From positions 18,877 to 82,876 of the forward strand of contig CBHREK010000010.1 of the NCBI GenBank assembly GCA_966077345.1: a DNA stretch of 64,000 nucleotides, in the 5' to 3' direction. Position 1 is the stretch's first letter, and each line of letters begins with the position of its first letter. The stretch comes from an uncultured Duganella sp. Its GTDB lineage: Bacteria > Pseudomonadota > Gammaproteobacteria > Burkholderiales > Burkholderiaceae_D. A model generated the notes under the pieces. The model saw only the letters and a list, made by a program, of their open reading frames with translations. It did no database searches and was not told where the DNA came from. Below, one piece after another: positions 7,608 to 48,290 of the stretch. The translations under genes and the position numbers were made by a program.

Positions 7608-8621
7608 ATGATCGACTTCGACTACGAAGCATTACGCAGCATCGGACTTAACAACACCATCATTTCGCGCCTGGCCGAGGCACCTGCCGGCCGCCTGTAC
7701 CGCATCACCGAATATCAACGCGACCGCATCAGCCTGCACGACGGCGTGGCCGAAATTCACGCACGCGCCCTGCCCCGCCTGCTCGCCGAGACAGCGCTCT
7801 GCGTCGGCGACTGGGTGATCGCGCAGCTCAACTCCTTAAACGAGGTGTGGATAAATCACCGTTTATCCCCAATGAATCAATTCGCCCGCGCCGATTCGCC
7901 ACCCATCGCGAGCAATATCGATACCGCCTTGCTGGTCATGGGCCTGGATGGCGACTTCAATTTGCGCCGCATTGAACGCTACCTGGCGCTCGCCGCGGCC
8001 GCCGAAGTCACGCCCCTGATCGTCCTCAGCAAACCGGATCTCTGCGCCGACATTGATGGCCGGGTGGCCGCGCTGACGGAACGGCTGCCGCCGCGCACGC
8101 AGTTCCTGCTGGTGAACGGCACCAGCGCGGAATCCATCACGCAGCTGGATCCCTGGCTAGGCCCTGGACAAACCATCTGCCTGCTTGGTTCTTCCGGCGC
8201 CGGCAAGTCAACCTTGACCAACGCCCTGGCTGGAGCAACGCAGGAAACCGGCGGCGTGCGGCGTACCGACCATCGCGGCCGGCATACGACAACCGCCCGG
8301 TCGATGCATTTCTGCCCTTCCGGCGCCTGCATCATCGATACGCCGGGCTTGCGCAGCCTGAGCCCGGAATCCTTGTCGTCGGCCTTCGACGATATCGAAT
8401 CGCTGGCTGCAGGCTGCCAGTTCCGCGATTGCCGGCACGAGGGCGAACCCGGCTGCGCAGTACTGGGCCATGTGGACCCCGACCGCCTGCACAACTTCCA
8501 CAAGCTGCAACGCGAAGTGCGCCGCAACCGGCAAACTGCGCTGGAACGGATTGCTGAACGGCAGAAATGGAAGTCGCTGATGAAGTCGGCCGCTGCGCGC
8601 AGCCGGCAAAAGCGCAGCTAG
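7608..8621 (+). CDS. rsgA: Ribosome small subunit-dependent GTPase A (probable paralog)
   Basis: Circularly permuted GTPase: LSKPDL, GSSGAGKSTL, GRHTTT, DTPGLR; Zn finger CQFRDCRHEGEPGCAV. Start at ATG 7608 preferred over GTG 7572. Confidence 0.9.
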   Translation: MIDFDYEALRSIGLNNTIISRLAEAPAGRLYRITEYQRDRISLHDGVAEIHARALPRLLAETALCVGDWVIAQLNSLNEVWINHRLSPMNQFARADSPPIASNIDTALLVMGLDGDFNLRRIERYLALAAAAEVTPLIVLSKPDLCADIDGRVAALTERLPPRTQFLLVNGTSAESITQLDPWLGPGQTICLLGSSGAGKSTLTNALAGATQETGGVRRTDHRGRHTTTARSMHFCPSGACIIDTPGLRSLSPESLSSAFDDIESLAAGCQFRDCRHEGEPGCAVLGHVDPDRLHNFHKLQREVRRNRQTALERIAERQKWKSLMKSAAARSRQKRS

Positions 8622-21163: not shown

Positions 21164-21811
21164 TTACGCCCTGCCGATGAAAACCAGATGACGCTGCGCG
21201 TCCAGTCCTGGTACTTGCAAAGGCTGTAGCTCGTTCACTTTCCATGGGTCTGGCAGTCGCTCGCGCTCCTCTGCCGGCGCCGTGCCTTTCAGGGCTATGA
21301 ATCGCCCACCCTCTGCCAGCAGGTGCCCGGACCAGTTCACAAAGTCGCTGAGGTCCGCAAAGGCACGCGAGGTGATGACGTCGTAAGGCGTCTTGACCTG
21401 CAGTTCCTGCACCTTCTTCGTGTAGACCGTGACGTTGCCCAGTTCCAGCTCTGCTTTCACCTGGTTCAGGAAGGCCGTCTTCTTGTGCACGATGTCGATC
21501 ATCGACACTTTCATGTCCGGGCGCGCGATGGCCAAGACCACGCCCGGCAATCCGCCCCCTGCCCCAACGTCCAGCACGTTCTGCGCATCCTTGAAGGCAG
21601 GTACTGCTGCCAGCGAATCCAGGACGTGCAGGGTCATCATTTCCATCGGGTCGCGTACGGCCGTCAGGTTGTACACCTTGTTCCACTTGTTCAGCAGGGC
21701 CAGGTAGTCCAGCAGTTTTTCCTGCTGTGCTTCGCCCAAGCCCAGGTCCAGCTGTTCGACACCATTCTTCAGTACGTGCGCCAGTGCGGCGCGATCAAAC
21801 ACCGCCATCAA
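21164..21811 (-). CDS. rsmG: 16S rRNA m7G527 methyltransferase
   Basis: [24 protein letters not shown]. Confidence 0.96.
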
Positions 21812-23736
21812 GCCGCCTCGTCTTTCAGCGTGACGAAACCGCCGTGGCCGGCTTTCTTCAGGTGTACCAGCAGCAGCGAAATCGCGGCTGGGGTCACGCC
21901 CGAAATACGCGAAGCCTGGCCCAGGGTCTCCGGACGATGCTTCTGCAGTTTCTGGCGCACTTCCATGGATAGCGCCGTGATCTCTGCATAGTTGAAGCCT
22001 TCGGGCAGCTTCAGGTTTTCGTAGTGCTCATGACGCTCGACTTCGCGCAGCTGGCGATCGATATAGCCCGAATACTTCAGGGTGATTTCGATCTGCTCCA
22101 TTACTGCCTCGTCGGTGACCCCAGGACCTGCCAAAGCTTGGCCTTCATTACCGGTCATGGTCATCAGCTTTTCGTAGCCGACGCCCGGACGACGCAGCAG
22201 GTCTGCCAGCGAATATTCGCGCTCGATGGCCTGGCCGATTACACGCTCGGACTCGGCTGCCGCCAGGATGCGCGGGTTGACCCAGGTCGATTTCAGGCGC
22301 TCCAGTTCCTGCGCAACGGCCTCGCGTTTGCGATCGAAAGCTTCCCACTGCGCATCACCGACGACACCCAGCTTACGCCCGATTTCTGTCAGGCGCATGT
22401 CAGCGTTATCTTCACGCAGGCTCAGGCGGTATTCCGCGCGGCTGGTGAACATGCGATACGGCTCTTGAACGCCCTGGGTCACCAGATCGTCGACCAGCAC
22501 GCCGAGGTAGGCTTCTGAACGAGCTGGAGTCCAGGATTCTTCGCCCTTGGTTTGCAGTGCCGCGTTAATACCGGCCAGCATGCCCTGCGCCGCAGCTTCT
22601 TCGTAACCGGTGGTACCGTTGATCTGACCGGCGAAGAACAGGCCGTTGATCGCCTTGGTTTCCAGCGAAGCTTTCAGGCCGCGCGGGTCGAAATAGTCAT
22701 ACTCGATGGCATAGCCAGGACGCAGGATATGCGCGTTCTCCAGACCCTTCATCGAACGCACCAGTTCGATCTGCACATCGAATGGCAGGCTGGTCGAGAT
22801 ACCGTTCGGGTAGAACTCATGGGTCGTCAAGCCTTCCGGTTCCAGGAAAATCTGGTGCGATTCCTTGGCCGAAAAGCGGTGGATCTTGTCTTCAATCGAC
22901 GGGCAATAGCGCGGGCCAACGCCCTCGATCACGCCGGTGTACATTGGGCTGCGGTCCAGGCCGCCACGAATAATGTCGTGGGTTTTCTGGTTGGTATGGG
23001 TAACCCAGCACGGCAACTGTTTCGGGTGCATGGAGGCATTGCCCATCACCGAGAACACTGGCACAGGATCCAAGTCGCCCGGCTGCTCGGTCATTTGCGA
23101 GAAGTCGATGCTCCGGCCATCAATGCGTGGCGGCGTGCCAGTCTTCAGGCGGCCTTGTGGCAGTTTCAATTCTTTCAGGCGCGCCGACAGCGAAATCGCT
23201 GGTGGATCGCCGGCACGGCCGGCCGAGAAATTCTGCAGGCCGACGTGGATCTTACCGTCCAGGAAGGTACCGGCGGTCAGCACGACAGCACGGCCCAGGA
23301 ACTTCAAGCCAATCTGGGTGACGGCGCCAACGACGCGGTCGCCCTCCACCATCAGGTCGTCCACCGCCTGCTGGAACAGCCACAAGTTCGGCTGGTTTTC
23401 CAGGCGATGACGGATGGCGGCCTTGTACAGGATACGGTCAGCCTGGGCGCGGGTCGCGCGCACGGCAGGGCCTTTGGAGGAATTCAGGATGCGGAACTGG
23501 ATGCCCGACTCATCGGTAGCGATGGCCATGGCGCCACCCATTGCGTCGACCTCTTTGACGAGGTGGCCTTTGCCAATGCCGCCGATGGATGGGTTGCACG
23601 ACATCTGGCCCAGCGTCTCAATGTTGTGAGTCAACAGGAGAGTCTTCTGGTCCATGCGGGCGGAAGCGAGGGCCGCCTCGGTACCGGCGTGACCACCGCC
23701 GACAACGATAACGTCGAATTCAGTAGGAAATAACAT
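21808..23736 (-). CDS. mnmG: tRNA uridine-5-carboxymethylaminomethyl modification enzyme
   Basis: [44 protein letters not shown]; true start MLFPTEFDV at 23736. Confidence 0.98.
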
Positions 23737-23826
23737 GGTAAAAATGGGGAAAAGCTGGGGATCGAACTGAATTATAAAGTTTTTTCGCCCCTGCGAATTT
23801 TTTGGGCAGGATTTTTTTGCTCGCAA

Positions 23827-23842
23827 TGTTTCACGTGAAACA
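23827..23842. other. parS: parS centromere site 1
   Basis: Perfect TGTTTCACGTGAAACA. Confidence 0.93.
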
Positions 23843-23854
23843 AAAAAGGGCAGT

Positions 23855-23901
23855 AAAGAAATGGGGACGTACCCCTTAAAAGGGTACGTCCCCATTTCTT
23901 T
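23855..23901. terminator. 20-bp perfect inverted repeat (probable terminator between the TSUP gene and mnmG)
   Basis: AAAGAAATGGGGACGTACCC (23855-23874) / GGGTACGTCCCCATTTCTTT (23882-23901). Confidence 0.7.
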
Positions 23902-31421: not shown

Positions 31422-33023
31422 CTAGATCATACACAAAAGCGCTGCCTTTTCCGCAATCATGATTACCGGGGAATTCGTGTTACCGGAAGTAATGGTAGGC
31501 ATCACGGAAGCGTCCGCGATGCGCAACCCGCGAACGCCGCGAACCCGCAATTCGCTGTCAACCACGGCCGAAACGTCGTCCGCACGGCCCATTTTGCAGG
31601 TGCCGACCGGGTGGAAAATCGTGGTGCCGATGGACCCCGCTGCTTCGGCCAACTCCTCGTCAGTGCGAAAATGCACACCGGGTTTGCATTCTTCCGGCCT
31701 GTATTTCGCCAGCGCCGGCGCCGCAACGATCTTGCGCGTGAGGTTCAGCGCGGCCGCGGCGACGCGCCGGTCTTCGTCGGTGCTCAGGTACATCGGCGTA
31801 ATTTTCGGCGGCGCGTATGAGTCGGCCGAAGCGATGCGCACATGGCCGCGCGAGGTCGGACGCAGGTTGCAAACGCTGGCCGTGAAAGCAGGGAAGTCGT
31901 GCAGCGGTTCGCCAAAGCGCTCCAGCGACAGCGGCTGCACGTGGTATTCCAGGTTCGGCGTGGCTTGCTCCGGGCCTGATCGTGCAAACGCGCCCATTTG
32001 CGAAGGCGCCATCGACATCGGCCCGCTCTGGAACAAAGCATATTCAAGCCCAATGCGTGCCTTGCCCAACCAGCTTGAAGCCAGCGTATTCAAGGTCCGC
32101 GCACCCTGGACTTTGAACACCATGCGCAGTTGCAGGTGATCCTGCAGGTTGGCTCCAACGCCGGGCAAATCATGCACCGGCTCCACGCCTGCTTGCGCCA
32201 GCACTTCCGCCGGGCCAATGCCGGATAGCTGAAGAATCTGCGGCGTGCCGATTGCGCCAGCTGCCAACAGGGTCTCGCGCGCCTCCGCGTTCCAGCGCGT
32301 ACCGCCGCCGGTGAAAATGACGCCTTTGCAGACGCCCTCCTCCAGCACCAGTTTTTCAACGTGGCAGCCCGTCATCAGTGTCAGGTTGGGGCGCCCGGTC
32401 GCGGCACGCAAAAAAGCTTTTGCCGTATTCCAGCGGATGCCGCGCTTCTGGTTCACTTCGAAATAAGAGCAGCCGAAATTATCGCCGCGGTTGAAATCTT
32501 CGATCTTCGGGATGCCTGTCTGCTCCGCTGCATCACGGAACGCGTCGAGAATATCCCAACGCAGGCGCTGCTTTTCAACACGCCATTCGCCGCCGGCGCC
32601 GTGGAAGTCCGAAGCGCCGCCATGATGGTCTTCACTCTTACGGAACAGCGGCAAAACTTCCGACCAGCGCCAGCCTGGATCGCCACACATCTCGGCCCAT
32701 TGATCGTAGTCATTGGCCTGGCCGCGCATGTAAATCATGCCGTTGATCGAAGAACTGCCGCCGAGGACCTTGCCGCGCGGGTAAATCAGGCTGCGGCCGC
32801 CCAGGCCCACGTCCGGCTCCGTGCGAAACAGCCAGTCCGTGCGCGGATTATTGATGCAATGAAGGTAACCGACCGGGATATGGATCCAGACGTAATCGTC
32901 TTTTCCTCCCGCCTCGATTAGCAGCACTTGGTTTTTTGGATTTTGCGTCAGGCGATTCGCAAGCACACAGCCCGCCGTCCCTCCGCCCACGATGATGTAG
33001 TCAAACTGGCCCGCAGATTCCAA
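31422..33023 (-). CDS. GMC family oxidoreductase (choline dehydrogenase-like)
   Basis: DYIIVGGGTAG, RGKVLGGSSSING, GVGANLQDH, FHPVGTC, GNTN. TTG start at 33023 follows an AGGAGA SD. Confidence 0.9.
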   Translation of the reverse strand: MESAGQFDYIIVGGGTAGCVLANRLTQNPKNQVLLIEAGGKDDYVWIHIPVGYLHCINNPRTDWLFRTEPDVGLGGRSLIYPRGKVLGGSSSINGMIYMRGQANDYDQWAEMCGDPGWRWSEVLPLFRKSEDHHGGASDFHGAGGEWRVEKQRLRWDILDAFRDAAEQTGIPKIEDFNRGDNFGCSYFEVNQKRGIRWNTAKAFLRAATGRPNLTLMTGCHVEKLVLEEGVCKGVIFTGGGTRWNAEARETLLAAGAIGTPQILQLSGIGPAEVLAQAGVEPVHDLPGVGANLQDHLQLRMVFKVQGARTLNTLASSWLGKARIGLEYALFQSGPMSMAPSQMGAFARSGPEQATPNLEYHVQPLSLERFGEPLHDFPAFTASVCNLRPTSRGHVRIASADSYAPPKITPMYLSTDEDRRVAAAALNLTRKIVAAPALAKYRPEECKPGVHFRTDEELAEAAGSIGTTIFHPVGTCKMGRADDVSAVVDSELRVRGVRGLRIADASVMPTITSGNTNSPVIMIAEKAALLCMI

Positions 33024-33043
33024 GCTTTCTCCTGGTCCGAAGC

Positions 33044-33270
33044 TGTGGATAACGCTATGAATATCCACAGGCATCGTTTGTGAGTAAACAAGACTTCCCG
33101 AAAATCGCCCAAAATTGTCCAAAAACAGTCCGCAACTCACGCAAGGTTTACGCGCCTGCTTATACAGCTCGTAAACCCCTGATTTTTCTCCGCAAGCTGC
33201 ACTTATCCACAGAAAGTCGGGGTTGTTAACAACCACTACTACTTTGTATACACACTAATCTAACGTAAAC
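33044..33270. other. oriC-like module copy A (DnaA boxes plus DnaA-trio-like repeat)
   Basis: TGTGGATAA 33044-33052, ATATCCACA 33061-33069, TTATCCACA 33203-33211, ACTACTACT 33235-33243, then an AT-rich tract. Confidence 0.65.
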
Positions 33271-33330
33271 AAAACTCTCCACCTATACTGAACAAGAAAG
33301 TTGTTCCATGCAATTCGCCTGGAGGGGCTC

Positions 33331-36306
33331 TTGTCGACTACCGACGCCTATCGACGCTTTCGCAGGCGATTGCTCGTCACCATGACGATGCTCGCCTTGC
33401 TCGCCACGGCAGTCGTCGCCTGGCAACTCGCGTCATCTGCCAGCGATCGCGAACAGGCCATTCGCCAGCAAACCCAACACTACGCAAGGGCCATCGAAGC
33501 CCAGGTTCTAAGCACAATCGAGCTCTCCGACATCGCATTGCTCGGATTTGCCAGTGCAATCAAGGTCGCTCCCTACACCCCAGAGACCATCGACGGCCTG
33601 CTTTCCTCGCGTGGAGCTTCTTTCGGCAACAGTTTCTGGATTACTTTTATCGATCCAAACGGCTTTGCCACTGCAAGTTCGCGTGACATACCCGTCAGGG
33701 GCATCAACTATGCAGACCGCGATTACTTCCAGGCCCAGCTCAAGCCAGGCACCGGTCTCTTTGTCGGGGAACCAACCCGTGGCCGGATCTCAAATTCGCG
33801 GCTGTTCTTCCTCAGTCGTCGAGTTGAAGACGCTGAAGGCAAATTCCTGGGTGTGATAGTGGCTCCTATTGATGCCAGCAGACTCGCCGAAACCTTTGAA
33901 AATTCCCGTCTCAGCGAAGACGTCACCGTCACCTTGTTCCACATCAATGGCCATATCGTTGCTCGCGCTCCGCTCTTCGAACAAACCTTCAACCGCGACA
34001 TACGCGACTCAAACGTCTATCACGCCTTTGGCAGCAACCCGATCGGCACCATCGAAACAGTGAGTCCTATCGACAAAAAATCCCGCATCGCCAGCTACCG
34101 CAAACTGCCAAACCTGCCCTTGGTCGTTACTGTCGGCAGTTCCAACGTCGGCCTGGCGCTGATCTCGCAACGCCAATTGCTTATCGCCAGCATGGCGCTT
34201 TTCCTGATTTTCACGCTGATCGTTGCCGCGATCATTTATGCCCTGCGCTCCTTTTCCGCAGCAGAAGATCGCGAAAACCGCTATCGCGCCCTCTATGCAA
34301 CGTCGACACAGACCGAAAAGAAACTGGCCAGCAGCGAACAGCGCCTGCGCCTGATAGCCGACAACCTGCCGATCGTGATTGCTTACATGGATCGCGACGG
34401 GCATTACTCGTTCAAGAATCGACGCTTTGCTGAAACTTACGGCAGTGGAGAAAACATCCAGCAAGTACTGCCTCCAGACCTGTACGCGGAAACAAAGCCT
34501 CACCTGGAACGCGCGTTTGCCGGCGAAACCGTCCATTTCGAACGCGGGATGAAGCGGATAGACCAGGAATGCTGCGATGCCATCACTTACGTGCCCGATC
34601 GCGATGAACATGGAAAAGTAATCGGCCTGTTCGTCATGGCAGAAGACATCAGCGAGCGTAAGCGCCACGAAGAATCCAGCAAACTTGCCACGCTGATGTA
34701 CGAAAATGCCAGCGAAGGCATGATGGTGACCGATGCAGAGGGCCGCATCCTGTCCGTGAACCCTGCTTTCTCCCAGATCAGCGGTTATGCACCAGAAGAA
34801 GTCATCGGCCACCTGGCTTACGAACTCACTTCAAGCCACCAGGACATCAAGTTCTACAGCCGTATGCGTCAAACCATTACCCATACCGGCTACTGGGAAG
34901 GCGAAATCTGGCACCAGCACAAGAACGGCGACCATTACCTGGTCTCGCTGCGCTTCAATACCGTCTTCGATAACAAAGGCAATGCGCTGCGCCACGTCGC
35001 CCTGTTCACCGATATCACGAAGAAGAAAGCGACTGAAGAAGCGATCTGGAAGCAAGCCAACTTCGACACCCTTACGGGCTTGCCCAACCGGCGCATGTTC
35101 AACGACCGCCTGCGCCAGGAGATCAAAAAAGCAGCCCGCGACCAATTGCCCATGGCGCTGATCTTCATCGACCTGGATGGATTCAAAGCCGTCAACGATA
35201 CGCTTGGCCACGACTTTGGCGACATCCTGCTTAAACAAGTGGCAGAGCGCCTGCTCCAATGCGTGCGCAATACCGATACCGTGGCCCGTCTTGGCGGCGA
35301 TGAATTTACGGTCATCCTCAGCGAACTCAAAGAACCCGGCGACGTGGTCCGGATCGTGCAGGAAATCCTGCATAGCCTGGCCAGGCCGTTCCAGCTCAAG
35401 CACGAAATCGCCCATATTTCCGGCAGCGTGGGCATTTCGCTATTCCCTGACGATGGCGACGATGCGGAAGTGCTCATCAAAAACGCTGACCAGGCCATGT
35501 ATCTCGCCAAACAGCAGGGCCGCAACCGCTTCAACTACTTCGCGCCCTTCATGCAGGAAGCCAGCCAGATGCGCATCGAACTCGCAAACGAGCTACGTAA
35601 CGCATTGAAAAACAGGGAGTTACGACTGCTCTTCCAGCCAATCCGCAACCTGGCAACAGACAAAGTAGAAATGGCCGAAGCGCTGATTCGCTGGGAGCAT
35701 CCGCAGCGAGGCTTGCTCAAGCCGGCCGAATTCATAGGCGTTGCTGAAAATACCGGCATCATCGCCGCCATCGGCGAATGGGTCTTCCAGGAAGCTGCAG
35801 CGCTGGCGGCCAGCTTTGGCAATGGCTTCAAAGTCTGCGTGAACAAATCGGCCTGGCAGTTCCGTCATGAAGCAGTGGGCGTCGATCATTGGCTCGAGCT
35901 GCTGAAAGAACAGGCACTCTCGCCTCGATCAATGGTCATCGAGGTAACGGAAGGGCTGCTATTGGAGGCCAACCGCGAAGTCGTACAGCGTGTGCAGTCA
36001 TTGAGGGACGCCGATCTCCAGATTTCGCTGGACGATTTCGGGCATGGCTACTCGTCCCTGAACTTCCTGAAGCGTTTCAAGATCGATTTCCTCAAGCTGG
36101 ACACCAGTTTCAGCGACAACCAGCTCCTGTGCGAGGCAATCGTCACCATGGCGCACAAGCTAGACATCAAAGTCATCGCCGAAAAGGTCGAAAACGAAGC
36201 CCAACTGAAAATTTTGATGGCTGCAGGTTGCGATTTTGGCCAGGGATACCTGTTCGGAGAGCCAATTTCTGCTGAAAAACTACACCGCCTGTTGATAAGT
36301 CAATGA
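33331..36306 (+). CDS. Membrane Cache-PAS-PAS-GGDEF-EAL c-di-GMP signalling protein
   Basis: TM-Cache-TM; PAS EGMMVTDAEG; RNTD I-site plus RLGGDEF; EALIRW, DDFGHGYSSL, GQGYLF. TTG start after GGAGG assumed (ORF open from 33301). Confidence 0.92.
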   Translation: MSTTDAYRRFRRRLLVTMTMLALLATAVVAWQLASSASDREQAIRQQTQHYARAIEAQVLSTIELSDIALLGFASAIKVAPYTPETIDGLLSSRGASFGNSFWITFIDPNGFATASSRDIPVRGINYADRDYFQAQLKPGTGLFVGEPTRGRISNSRLFFLSRRVEDAEGKFLGVIVAPIDASRLAETFENSRLSEDVTVTLFHINGHIVARAPLFEQTFNRDIRDSNVYHAFGSNPIGTIETVSPIDKKSRIASYRKLPNLPLVVTVGSSNVGLALISQRQLLIASMALFLIFTLIVAAIIYALRSFSAAEDRENRYRALYATSTQTEKKLASSEQRLRLIADNLPIVIAYMDRDGHYSFKNRRFAETYGSGENIQQVLPPDLYAETKPHLERAFAGETVHFERGMKRIDQECCDAITYVPDRDEHGKVIGLFVMAEDISERKRHEESSKLATLMYENASEGMMVTDAEGRILSVNPAFSQISGYAPEEVIGHLAYELTSSHQDIKFYSRMRQTITHTGYWEGEIWHQHKNGDHYLVSLRFNTVFDNKGNALRHVALFTDITKKKATEEAIWKQANFDTLTGLPNRRMFNDRLRQEIKKAARDQLPMALIFIDLDGFKAVNDTLGHDFGDILLKQVAERLLQCVRNTDTVARLGGDEFTVILSELKEPGDVVRIVQEILHSLARPFQLKHEIAHISGSVGISLFPDDGDDAEVLIKNADQAMYLAKQQGRNRFNYFAPFMQEASQMRIELANELRNALKNRELRLLFQPIRNLATDKVEMAEALIRWEHPQRGLLKPAEFIGVAENTGIIAAIGEWVFQEAAALAASFGNGFKVCVNKSAWQFRHEAVGVDHWLELLKEQALSPRSMVIEVTEGLLLEANREVVQRVQSLRDADLQISLDDFGHGYSSLNFLKRFKIDFLKLDTSFSDNQLLCEAIVTMAHKLDIKVIAEKVENEAQLKILMAAGCDFGQGYLFGEPISAEKLHRLLISQ

Positions 36307-36520
36307 ATATCCACAGGATCGAATGTGCGTAAACACCATTTTTGAGTTCACGCACAAAATTTGTTCAGAACTCATCCGATTTAGACGCAGTTCTTGTCCA
36401 GCCAGTTCTACAATTCGTAAACTTCTGATTCTGTGGATGTTAACAGGTTTATCCACAGACAGGGTCGCGTTTACTATCTACTACTATCCTTTCGTATACA
36501 ACTTTAAATAAATAGAGGAC
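36290..36520. other. oriC-like module copy B (best oriC/unwinding candidate)
   Basis: TGTTGATAA 36290-36298, ATATCCACA 36307-36315, TGTGGATGT 36432-36440, TTATCCACA 36449-36457, GC-rich spacer, TACTATCTACTACTAT 36472-36487, AT-rich tail. Confidence 0.7.
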
Positions 36521-36529
36521 AACTCACGC

Positions 36530-37233
36530 ATGCGTCTCGGGATCATTTCAGCCTTGGCAGAAGAACAACAGGGTCTACTGGAAGCCATGGAGAGCCCCTA
36601 CAAGCTCATCCACGGTAAGCGTGAGTCACAGCCGGAAAACTCTGGAAAATCGATTCTGTGGCCGTTTTATCGCGAATTGGAAAGGTCGCTGCAGCAGTCA
36701 CAGCTGCGACACTTGTGGAGAAGTTCAACGTTACCCACATTATTTTTACCGGCGTCGCCGGTTCTGCAGACCTTGGGGTTCGAATTGGAGACGTTGTCGT
36801 CGCGGATTCCCTGGCTCAACACGATTTTGATGCCAGCCCGCTGTTCCCACGCTTCGAAATTCCCCTGACAGGCCTATCGCGCATGCCTACAGACCGTGAA
36901 TTGAGCCTGAAACTGAGCCTGGCTACACGCGAATTCCTGCAAAACGATGCACAAGTGCACCGAGGCCTCATTGGCAGCGGAGATCAATTCATCAAAGACC
37001 GGGCCCATCTGGAAGCCCTGAAAGACGCACTGCCTGAATTATTGGCAGTGGAAATGGAAGGCGCAGCAGTCGCCCAGGTCTGTCACGAACTGGGAGTGCC
37101 GTTTGCCATCATGAGGACGATTTCGGACAACGCAAATGAAGAAGCGGCGACGGATTTCATGCACTTTGTGCAAACCGTCGCCGCTCGCTACGCATATGGC
37201 GTCATCCAGAACTTCTGCAAATCGCTTACTTGA
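36530..37233 (+). pseudogene. mtnN: 5'-methylthioadenosine/S-adenosylhomocysteine nucleosidase, split by a 1-nt frameshift near 36626
   Basis: N-terminus MRLGIISALAEE..GKRE in one frame; TAGKLWKIDSVAVLSRIGKVAAA..FTGVAG..VEMEGAAVAQ..RTISD in another. Sequencing error cannot be excluded. Confidence 0.8.
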
Positions 37234-47964: not shown

Positions 47965-47979
47965 GCCTCATTCTAGCGC

Positions 47980-48290
47980 TGTGGATAAAGATGTGTAAAA
48001 GCCAGTGCAATTCCGCCTGAAAACCATGGGAAAGGCATTGGATAAGCACGAAGTGGTATGCATGAATTATTCACACAGCAAGCATTGGCGCGGCAATTGT
48101 GGAAAAGTCTGGGGAGTAGCTGCGTATAACCTTGGATAACTCCAAATTGTGGATAACGATGTGGGAAACCCCGAGGAAAACGACTGAATATGCGGTGCGG
48201 AACGCTGGATAACTGCATCTGGCTTGTGCGCATTTGTGGAAAAACTTGTGCATAAGCCTGTGTTCAGCCGAGTATAAGCCGGGATAAGTT
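47980..48290. promoter_or_regulatory. Dense DnaA-box cluster
   Basis: TTWTNCACA matches at 47980, 48067, 48098, 48148, 48235, 48247; near matches at 48037, 48121, 48131, 48160, 48204. Confidence 0.8.

Follow-up and report, generated by a model that had tools for sequence, protein, structure and literature searches.

The two copies of a DnaA-box module in the window, that is, the whole 64,000-nt stretch of an uncultured Duganella sp. that was analysed, are, judged by sequence comparison, the first and last members of an old array of tandem units and not a recent local duplication. We consider it probable, though not strongly so, that this array is made up of complete oriC-type DnaA modules, lies beside gidA-parA-atp, is split here by a GGDEF-EAL gene, may function as an origin and in this strain has more probably a secondary or dormant part. 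The homology of the units, their architecture, the long-term selection on the boxes and their spacing, the restriction of the units to one locus and the position of that locus in the DnaA-box-richest zone are shown by the data. The genes and the further box cluster that define the surroundings are as follows.

21808 to 23895, minus strand: mnmG/gidA, followed further left by gidB, parA and the atp operon
31422 to 33029, minus strand: GMC oxidoreductase gene, the left neighbour
33301 to 36306, plus strand: dCache-PAS-PAS-GGDEF-EAL gene (Pfam), between the units
36530 to 37233, plus strand: mtnN (PNP_UDP_1 family), frameshifted in this assembly
47975 to 48290, unstranded: about 10 DnaA boxes that form a third cluster, flanked by acpH and by an AsnC-type gene beside glmU/glmS

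The gidA-gidB-parA-atp genes form the classical origin-side gene set and lie left of the array, and dnaA is located about 375 kb from the array in this strain (G000). DnaA-box density is maximal around the array, and the third cluster (47975 to 48290) belongs to the same box-rich zone and is without trios and without an AT-rich tract. The nitronate monooxygenase (NMO) gene, which is found between the GMC gene and unit 1 in relatives, is missing here. The stop codon of the GGDEF-EAL gene (36304-36306) falls in the box-pair spacer of unit 2, and mtnN contains a conserved inverted box pair at 36714-36739.

The initial annotation had described the copies as a diverged oriC-like module with boxes and blocks in common register, and every coordinate that it gave for the anchor, boxes and blocks was verified against the sequence. 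The copies are stretches of about 245 bp (33034-33275 and 36275-36530) with three DnaA boxes at the same offsets, and the CTA/TAC repeats and AT-rich DNA described downstream of the distal box were seen in both. Their shared landmarks are listed below.

33057 and 36303: anchor ATGAATATCCACAGG, 3246 bp between the two
33169 and 36415: TCGTAAAC, one per copy
33246 and 36494: GTATAC, one per copy

The pairwise alignment was significant, with a local score of 59 against 17.7 ± 2.5 (maximum 34) in 1000 shuffles and a z-score of 16.9, and a score of 59 was reached by none of 1500 GC-matched windows of the same genome. The identity of the copies is about 51-60% in the MAFFT alignment, with the conserved blocks in register. 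Seven perfect DnaA boxes were observed in the window against 0.15 expected, together with five inverted box pairs spaced by 8 nt (expected 0), and the 212-kb contig C10 carries 10 of the 23 perfect boxes of the genome (Poisson P about 1e-8). A profile HMM of the unit gave exactly two matches over the whole 6.4-Mb genome, namely both copies (E about 1e-50 each), and BLAST found no further copy elsewhere in the genome. The alignment score and the HMM matches agree that the copies are homologous oriC-like modules. The parts of unit 1 are the following.

33034 to 33275, plus strand: unit 1 (copy 1), HMM match C10:51910-52151, E 1.9e-50
33044 to 33052, minus strand: DnaA box a, perfect, reading TGTGGATAA on the plus strand, offset -13 from the anchor
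33061 to 33069, plus strand: DnaA box b, ATATCCACA, with 1 mismatch, paired with box a, from which it diverges over an 8-nt spacer
33080 to 33090, plus strand: conserved block GTGAGTAAACA (GTG(A/C)GTAAACA), family consensus ATGTGcgtAAAC
33115 to 33123, plus strand: weak DnaA-box-like block TTGTCCAAA, family consensus TTTTTgTCCA
33172 to 33184, minus strand: putative IHF-like site AATCAGGGGTTTA, 1 mismatch to WATCAANNNNTTR, overlapping the conserved CGTAAAC..TGAT block
33203 to 33211, plus strand: DnaA box c, perfect TTATCCACA, 159 nt from the start of box a and facing the AT-rich tract
33236 to 33244, plus strand: trios CTA CTA CTT (3'-GAT-5' on the opposite strand), 24 nt past box c
33235 to 33300, unstranded: AT-rich tract, candidate unwinding element, containing GTATAC and CGTAAAC

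Unit 2 is of the middle or last type and is composed as follows.

36275 to 36530, plus strand: unit 2 (copy 2), mtnN-proximal, HMM match C10:55151-55406, E 1e-51
36290 to 36298, minus strand: DnaA box a', TGTTGATAA, 1 mismatch, within the last codons of the GGDEF-EAL gene
36307 to 36315, plus strand: DnaA box b', ATATCCACA, pairing with box a'
36325 to 36335, plus strand: conserved block GTGCGTAAACA (GTG(A/C)GTAAACA)
36418 to 36430, minus strand: putative IHF-like site AATCAGAAGTTTA, 1 mismatch
36432 to 36457, plus strand: second diverging pair, TGTGGATGT (2 mismatches), 8 nt, and the perfect box c' TTATCCACA at 36449-36457
36471 to 36486, plus strand: trio region, TTA CTA 13 nt past box c', one extra T, then CTA CTA CTA (36478-36486) at 20 nt
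36469 to 36525, unstranded: AT-rich tract, 75% A+T over 40 nt, overlapping the mtnN leader and ribosome-binding site

The IHF-like sites of both units, called by comparison with the IHF consensus WATCAANNNNTTR, are to be read as putative. The tract of unit 1 has 68% A+T over 40 nt against 38% A+T genome-wide, and of the seven stretches that reach 72% A+T or more per 40 nt within 30 kb around the array, two are the tracts of the two units. Neither unit 1 nor unit 2 yielded a sigma-70-like promoter, and no promoter or terminator consensus was found within the units.

The comparison with relatives changed the view of how the copies arose. An array of 2-4 units, at one locus per genome and running from GMC/NMO to mtnN, was found in Massilia, Janthinobacterium, Duganella and Pseudoduganella, and the module was present in 17 of the 18 genus genomes. 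In other genera the 2-4 tandem units recur every 360-600 bp over 1-1.5 kb of non-coding DNA. The initial annotation had raised a single copy between the GMC gene and mtnN in relatives, where two to four were found; of its proposed duplication of an origin core 3246 bp apart, the homology of the copies stood, while the duplication did not take place within this genome but belongs to the ancient array. Unit 1 is orthologous to the GMC/NMO-proximal first unit and is matched best, in other genera, by first units, and across genera first units match first units best in 33 of 34 cases. The dCache-PAS-GGDEF-EAL gene has no counterpart at the same position in Massilia and Janthinobacterium; it was inserted between the units in the Duganella/Pseudoduganella branch, later than the array, and this insertion accounts for the 3246-bp separation. 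The selection on both copies that had been suggested is borne out by the positional orthologues of each in other genera, and box spacing has indeed been kept while the spacers diverged, the distance from the first to the distal box being 157-161 nt in 86 units from 35 loci. The family consensus has a 13-nt spacer followed by TTA CTA CTA CTA CTA TTT TTA and an AT-rich run. Of 10 family genomes 5 show this strict pattern, against none of 390 other Burkholderiales, and the exact unit geometry was likewise not found outside the family among these 390 genomes. No description of the oriC of Massilia, Janthinobacterium or Duganella was found in the literature searched.

We infer an origin function of the units, whose layout of a diverging box pair, weak boxes, an IHF-like site, a distal perfect box, trios and an AT-rich tract is like that of a minimal origin. 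The distal perfect box stands fifteen helical turns off and faces a GC-ended spacer. DnaA would fill the strong boxes, a bend would then draw the far boxes near, and a DnaA oligomer would spread onto the trios so that the AT-rich DNA melts. The E. coli-type oriC consists of the DUE, R1, an IHF site, left and right DnaA-oligomerisation halves and R4, and lies next to gidA and unlinked to dnaA. The unit resembles it in its size of about 250 bp, in the strong box toward the AT-rich tract (as R1) with the IHF-like site just behind, in the weak boxes between, in the opposite-facing strong box at the far end, and in the gidA-atp-glmUS neighbourhood far from dnaA. It differs in that the array has 2-4 complete tandem units, here split by a gene, and in that each unit contains two diverging boxes 8 nt apart and CTA/TAG trios instead of 13-mers.

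The initial annotation had also recognised the basal unwinding system (BUS), which in B. subtilis consists of incC boxes 6/7 and trios (PMC6669920, PMC8287927) and in which 0-16 nt, most often 13, separate the box from the first trio (PMC8287927). The family consensus fits these rules and resembles the system in the strong box, the 13-nt G/C-ended spacer and at least five trios in the right strand and orientation, followed by AT-rich DNA. In G000 the copies retain the box (at most 2 mismatches and facing the trios; here perfect TTATCCACA at 33203 and 36449), three trios (at least 3 consecutive, with the central A on the bound strand; 33236-33244 and 36478-36486) and the AT-rich tract past the trios (68% and 75% A+T over 40 nt). 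In G000 the three in-frame trios begin at 24 nt in copy 1 and at 20 nt in copy 2, outside the 0-16 nt rule, and in copy 2 TTA CTA already begins at 13 nt, ahead of one extra base. Further differences are the single strong box instead of a close tandem pair and the presence of several modules per chromosome. The bipartite origins of H. pylori (oriC1-dnaA-oriC2) and B. subtilis (incAB-dnaA-incC) likewise have two box regions with one gene between, and a bipartite model for G000 is possible if both units cooperate. But the gene between is GGDEF-EAL and not dnaA, the parts are paralogous full units, each with an AT-rich tract, and not complementary sub-regions, and the split is a late event in one branch; the units do not fall into the bipartite class, in which two complementary clusters are split by dnaA and the unwinding site is in just one of them.

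Within the Burkholderiales, double origins, dnaA-linked and hemE-linked and 291 kb apart, were predicted by DoriC for Ralstonia pickettii 12D (PMC4403523), and in Cupriavidus metallidurans CH34 the skew switch lies 90 kb from dnaA, beside 213 nt with 3 perfect boxes (PMC2864759). These chromosomes are similar to ours in having DnaA-box clusters over hundreds of kb around dnaA, and a hemE-priA box cluster is also present in G000 (C3:54258-55068), but theirs are single clusters, whereas the array units are demonstrably homologous, tandem and old. DARS1/DARS2 and datA are also DnaA-box clusters outside oriC that regulate DnaA, and an opposed box pair is a DARS hallmark. The DARS core has converging boxes I and II 5 bp apart, box II being a consensus box, and a third box that faces as box II does (PMC6868365); the module pair is diverging, 8 bp apart and without an adjoining third box, and a DARS reading of it was rejected. 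The units share the boxes and the IHF-like site with datA, yet they also have trios and an AT-rich tract, while DARS and datA are without trios or an unwinding tract. DARS-core-like triplets were noticed elsewhere in the genome, in the hemE-priA gap and on contig C53.

On the contig, noise in the plain cumulative GC skew prevented a minimum from being placed, and it was replaced by two other measures, KOPS-like octamers (GGGCAGGG, 286:16) and transcription-corrected GC3 skew. In G013, judged by whole-genome polarity, the origin falls at 2.35-2.43 Mb and the terminus lies near 5.3-5.7 Mb, with the array at 2.449-2.451 Mb and dnaA at 2.04 Mb. The direction index steps by about +1.2 to +1.5 at the array in G001 and G182, and in G013, G001 and G182 the strand-bias switch is within about 100 kb of the array and not at dnaA. 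The 20 kb beside the array in G013 (putA to glmS) still has gidA-side polarity, therefore the switch is 20-100 kb off. In the complete relatives the antipode of dif lies +13 (G013), -32 (G138), -69 (G016), -249 (G001) and +222 kb (G182) from the array, the corresponding values for dnaA being +316 to +409 kb, and in the first three it is not at dnaA. The dif-like site of G000 is on C49 of a 63-contig assembly. An origin simply at dnaA was rejected by GC3 skew, octamer polarity and dif position for G013, G001 and G182, but not for G000 and G138. The KOPS-like motif switch was treated as unreliable near the origin, since its distance from the array is 80-300 kb in all genomes and no box cluster is found at it.

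The skew switch that an origin at the modules implies was found near them in G013, G001 and G182, and was absent at them in G000 and G138. G000 has strong bias on the gidA side and no switch at the array, and weak bias of the same sign continues over the 375 kb to dnaA (direction index -0.55 to -0.64); in its closest complete relative, G138, which is collinear with it, the index is -0.8 to -1.4. Thus the 375-410 kb from the array to dnaA carries the opposite bias in G000 and G138. Between the two sites the index is about -1.0 in G138, -0.6 in G000, -0.15 in G016, +0.1 in G182, +0.55 in G001 and +0.7 in G013, with per-zone errors of 0.25-0.6 units. Paired orthologues compared with G013 gave -0.052 ± 0.014 for G000 (n=98) and -0.078 ± 0.022 for G138 (n=57), and controls on the gidA side were unchanged. 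An inversion was rejected as the source of the difference between G000 and G013, the region being collinear over about 1 Mb; a separate break of synteny and polarity was seen on C60 at about 110 kb. The lineage bears the signature of forks from the dnaA side, so that the dominant origin of this strain is probably not the array, whose units would more likely be a secondary or dormant origin, retained for DnaA binding, than the main one. Firing of the array would set the transcription of dnaA-dnaN-gyrB head-on to replication.

A locus that binds DnaA without being an origin, for titration or inactivation of DnaA or for control of the flanking promoters (NMO/GMC, GGDEF-EAL, mtnN), with replication starting on the dnaA side, is a tentative alternative which we regard as rather unlikely. 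Clusters such as datA and the Bacillus DnaA-box clusters titrate or inactivate DnaA near the origin region. The missing polarity switch at the array in G000 and G138 speaks for it, and the units are equally kept in lineages of either polarity, which argues that their conservation is independent of a main-origin role; unit 2 stops 9 nt short of the mtnN start, the GGDEF-EAL gene begins where unit 1 stops, mtnN holds the extra conserved box pair, and the Herbaspirillum origin has been assigned to dnaA (PMC3093359). Yet the 13-nt spacer, the CTA trios, the AT-rich tract and the 15-turn geometry would be superfluous for titration or promoters but are conserved best of all, in Massilia and Janthinobacterium the upstream units lack a gene that they could regulate, the units lack a sigma-70-like promoter, and relatives have a switch near the array. 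Nor was a box cluster or AT-rich tract found near dnaA as an alternative origin: in G000 the gaps rpmH-dnaA and dnaA-dnaN were rejected as origin-like since they hold REP-like palindromes and a single perfect box; that box lies in the rpmH-dnaA gap, where an AT-rich tract is missing, and the 2.9 kb of AT-rich sequence past gyrB are low-GC and coding. A small-RNA gene family or promoter cassette that carries DnaA boxes by happenstance is very improbable: the units are short and repeated in non-coding DNA, and RNAalifold gave -8.7 and -9.5 kcal/mol for the first units against about 0 for column shuffles, but the signal is the same on both strands, comes from the palindromic box pair and falls to -0.8 in the last units, there is no Rfam match, and the units have no promoter or terminator consensus. 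Chance likeness, a dispersed mobile repeat (REP/MITE) or an insertion footprint is already refuted and keeps practically no probability; the copies flank one gene and nothing more favours it, against the z-score of 16.9, the 1500 genomic controls of which none reached the alignment score, just two genomic copies (both HMM matches in 6.4 Mb being at the array locus) in a place syntenic across four genera, and an identity of about 51%, far too low for a target-site duplication.

That the family has more than one usable origin, in the form of 2-4 redundant tandem units and of gidA-side and dnaA-side sites 320-410 kb apart whose dominance changed between collinear genomes, is in our view unlikely; a change of dominance between collinear relatives would mean that the same 400-kb segment is replicated in opposite directions. 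Still less probable is the narrower reading of two usable origins, the gidA-side array and a dnaA-side site, whose relative use varies by lineage, so that the 375-410 kb segment would be replicated mostly rightwards in some species and leftwards in others. The direction index forms a series from G138 to G013 despite collinear gene order, the paired-orthologue tests show that the difference is real, and the gidA-side edge of the weakly polarised zone is the array in 5 of 6 genomes (not G138), the dnaA-side edge being less defined. However, no natural bacterial chromosome with two origins in use is known (PMC4403523), an origin-like sequence at the dnaA end was not found, the series is equally explained by one relocation followed by slow re-equilibration of composition, and the per-zone errors of 0.25-0.6 units also count against it.

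An ancient array of oriC-type units thus remains our preferred reading, and throughout the family several complete origin-like units have been kept next to one another over the long term, with tightly fixed geometry and far from dnaA. Bacterial chromosomes are taken to have a single origin with a single unwinding site. If the units fire, they would be a natural case of redundant or modular origins, on which the choice of DnaA between equivalent unwinding sites could be studied. If they are silent in this lineage, they would show the fate of an origin after initiation has moved, in which boxes and spacing stay and the surrounding strand composition flips. In both cases copy-number sequencing can test origin relocation on collinear genomes whose strand bias is opposite over about 400 kb, and the annotation of oriC at dnaA in Oxalobacteraceae genomes is unsafe.

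The studied genome, an uncultured Duganella sp. (6.4 Mb, 62% G+C, 63 contigs), carries two oriC-like DnaA modules, unit 1 (33034-33275) and unit 2 (36275-36530), in the following setting, where positions without a contig name are those of the window:

31422-33029, minus strand, GMC oxidoreductase gene
33030-33300, gap 1, between the GMC oxidoreductase gene and the dCache-PAS-GGDEF-EAL gene
33301-36306, plus strand, dCache-PAS-GGDEF-EAL gene
36307-36529, gap 2, between the dCache-PAS-GGDEF-EAL gene and mtnN

The stop codon of the GGDEF-EAL gene lies within the box pair of unit 2, and left of the units are the atp operon, parA, gidB and gidA, all in minus orientation. In relatives the GMC gene is separated from unit 1 by a 345-aa nitronate monooxygenase gene; unit 1 adjoins the GMC start in the studied genome because this gene is absent (33029-33044). 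At 36620-36630, mtnN has a 1-nt deletion compared with two close relatives (GAGT-CACAG versus GAGTACACGG) and is therefore split into two ORFs, 36530-36868 and 36658-37233; mtnN is a pseudogene here, or the assembly is in error.

The sequence anchors of the initial annotation were all found in place, and the homology that it proposed for the two stretches was borne out by an alignment with conserved blocks in register. The local alignment score was 59 (shuffles, 17.7 ± 2.5), which was reached by 0 of 1500 GC-matched genomic windows, and a unit profile search of the whole genome returned exactly two matches, units 1 and 2. Both copies contain a diverging DnaA-box pair TGTGGATAA-N8-ATATCCACA, a GTGnGTAAACA block plus a weak box, a CGTAAAC..TGAT block and, 159 nt past the first box, a perfect TTATCCACA box. 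The CGTAAAC..TGAT block is presumably an IHF-like site on the opposite strand. The distal box is followed in both copies by a spacer, CTA repeats and an AT-rich tract, in that order, and the strand and orientation of the repeats match the expectation for DnaA-trios behind a box (PMC8287927). The in-frame trio run comprises three trios only, its distance from the box being 24 nt in copy 1 and 20 nt in copy 2; in copy 2, TTA CTA also occurs at the canonical spacing of 13 nt and is followed by a one-base break.

Within the genus, 17 of 18 genomes carry the module. In Massilia, Janthinobacterium, Duganella and Pseudoduganella, 1-1.5 kb of non-coding DNA between the GMC gene (or the nitronate monooxygenase gene) and mtnN carries the units in tandem, two to four of them, repeating every 360-600 bp. 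The pair had been taken for a local duplication in the studied genome; it is instead part of an old family-wide tandem array, with 2-4 units in relatives, and only in the Duganella/Pseudoduganella branch does the GGDEF-EAL gene separate the first unit from the later ones. The claim that box spacing was kept while the spacers diverged holds across the family: the first-to-distal box distance is 157-161 nt in 86 units and the intervening DNA is poorly conserved. Past the distal box, the consensus consists of 13 nt of spacer, TTA CTA CTA CTA CTA TTT TTA and an AT-rich run, in that order. The best match in other genera was a first unit for 33 of 34 first units and a later unit for 51 of 52 later units; the duplication is therefore older than these genera, each copy having persisted since then. 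Of 10 family genomes sampled, 5 showed the strict geometry, against 0 of 390 other Burkholderiales. By this sequence evidence, the units are origin-type modules under long-term selection.

DnaA-box density is maximal around the array (20 boxes per 50 kb, genome mean 4.1), and 9 of the 11 inverted pairs with an 8-nt spacer (<=2 mismatches) in the genome are on contig C10, of which the window is positions 18877-82876. One such pair, TGTGGATAA-N8-TTATCCCCA, is at 7846-7871, and a lone perfect box is at 393-401. Another inverted pair, TGTGGAGAA-N8-TTACCCACA (36714-36739), lies within the mtnN coding sequence (VEKFNVTH), where every Massilia, Janthinobacterium and Duganella locus has it at the same codon positions, and is not kept in mtnN of Burkholderia or Comamonadaceae. 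A third cluster of about 10 mostly co-oriented boxes (47975-48290), with neither trios nor an AT-rich tract, is bordered by acpH and an AsnC-type regulator gene and sits beside glmU/glmS; its counterpart in the complete relative G013 is 1 kb from the dif antipode. Outside the window, the 750-bp hemE-priA gap (C3:54258-55068) holds two copies of a three-box motif, 437 bp apart, whose arrangement resembles the E. coli DARS core: a box, an opposed consensus box after 5 bp and a further box after another 3 bp. This cluster is of the hemE-linked type given by DoriC as a second origin in Ralstonia. Two further DARS-core-like three-box motifs (C53:71342-71378 and 72375-72411), each followed by CTTGACA and AAAATCAAGGACTT, flank a response-regulator gene, which makes this a second locus with copies of a box module on both sides of a gene. 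Six tandem repeats of ~125 bp in 42% G+C DNA (C12:33550-34400) each contain GATCAAGGACTT and a DnaA box, then CAGAAnnTGTG.

The dnaA gene is on contig C3. Contig C10 lies next to contig C3, both being collinear with the complete genome G013, and dnaA is therefore ~375 kb from the array, with its transcription directed at the array; the same layout, spanning 316-409 kb, is found in G001, G013, G016, G138 and G182, all complete relatives. Between rpmH and dnaA there are one perfect box and REP-like palindromes, with no AT-rich tract. Long palindromes that are nearly identical, GGTAAACCAGGGTCTGACCC...GGGTCAGACCCTGGTTTACC, flank dnaA, in its gaps to dnaN and to rpmH (C3:207550-207660 and C3:209210-209310).

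Replication polarity was estimated from leading-strand octamers trained on well-polarised contigs (for example GGGCAGGG, 286:16) and from GC3 skew, as an index that corrects for the strand of transcription, with gene calls from a simple purpose-made ORF picker. At a resolution of ~50-100 kb and an error of 0.25-0.6 index units per zone, polarity in G013 switches at 2.35-2.43 Mb, the array being at 2.449-2.451 Mb; one replichore runs from ~2.42 Mb to ~5.3-5.7 Mb, the other is the remainder, and dnaA, at 2.04 Mb, is deep within the second. The 20 kb adjoining the array keep the gidA-side polarity, and 2.376-2.43 Mb is an island without counterpart in the studied genome. A polarity step at the array is also seen in G001 and G182. 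Each complete relative has a single dif-like site, whose antipode is offset from the array by +13, -32, -69, -249 and +222 kb (G013, G138, G016, G001 and G182) and from dnaA by +316 to +409 kb. The sole dif-like site of the studied genome is C49:56397, GCATTTGACATAATATAGATTATGCGAAGT.

A strand-bias switch at the modules, as initially expected, was not seen in the studied genome, where a strong polarity on the gidA side gives way to a weak one of the same sign that extends up to dnaA; the closest complete relative, G138, is collinear with it and has the same pattern, more strongly. In paired orthologues of the array-to-dnaA segment, the strand-signed GC3-skew difference to G013 was -0.052 ± 0.014 for the studied genome (n=98) and -0.078 ± 0.022 for G138 (n=57), with no difference in gidA-side control orthologues or between the studied genome and G138. 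One collinear 375-410 kb segment therefore bears opposite replication signatures in species of one genus. On contig C60 at ~100-120 kb, leading-strand motif polarity changes from + to - and G013 synteny stops; this break, ~250 kb away from the array, points to an inversion or translocation within a single replichore.

The compositional evidence places the origin at the array or close to it in some lineages; in the lineage of the studied genome, it says, most forks arrived from the dnaA side. Other Burkholderiales offer related hints: in Cupriavidus CH34 the skew switch is 90 kb from dnaA, adjoining three perfect boxes in 213 nt (PMC2864759), Ralstonia pickettii has predicted dnaA-linked and hemE-linked origins (PMC4403523), and the origin of Herbaspirillum was assigned to dnaA (PMC3093359). 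The main rival, a purely DnaA-regulatory locus, has the missing polarity switch of the studied genome in its favour and the trio-like repeats and AT-rich tracts of the units against it, and appears rather unlikely to us. Two usable origins with lineage-specific dominance, to which the differing polarity among species could be put, seem improbable; no natural bacterial use of two usable origins is known (PMC4403523). Sequence and compositional evidence together lead us to the reading that the units are of oriC type and belong to an ancient array that a gene insertion has split; in this Duganella they would probably be a secondary or dormant origin, retained as DnaA-binding elements.
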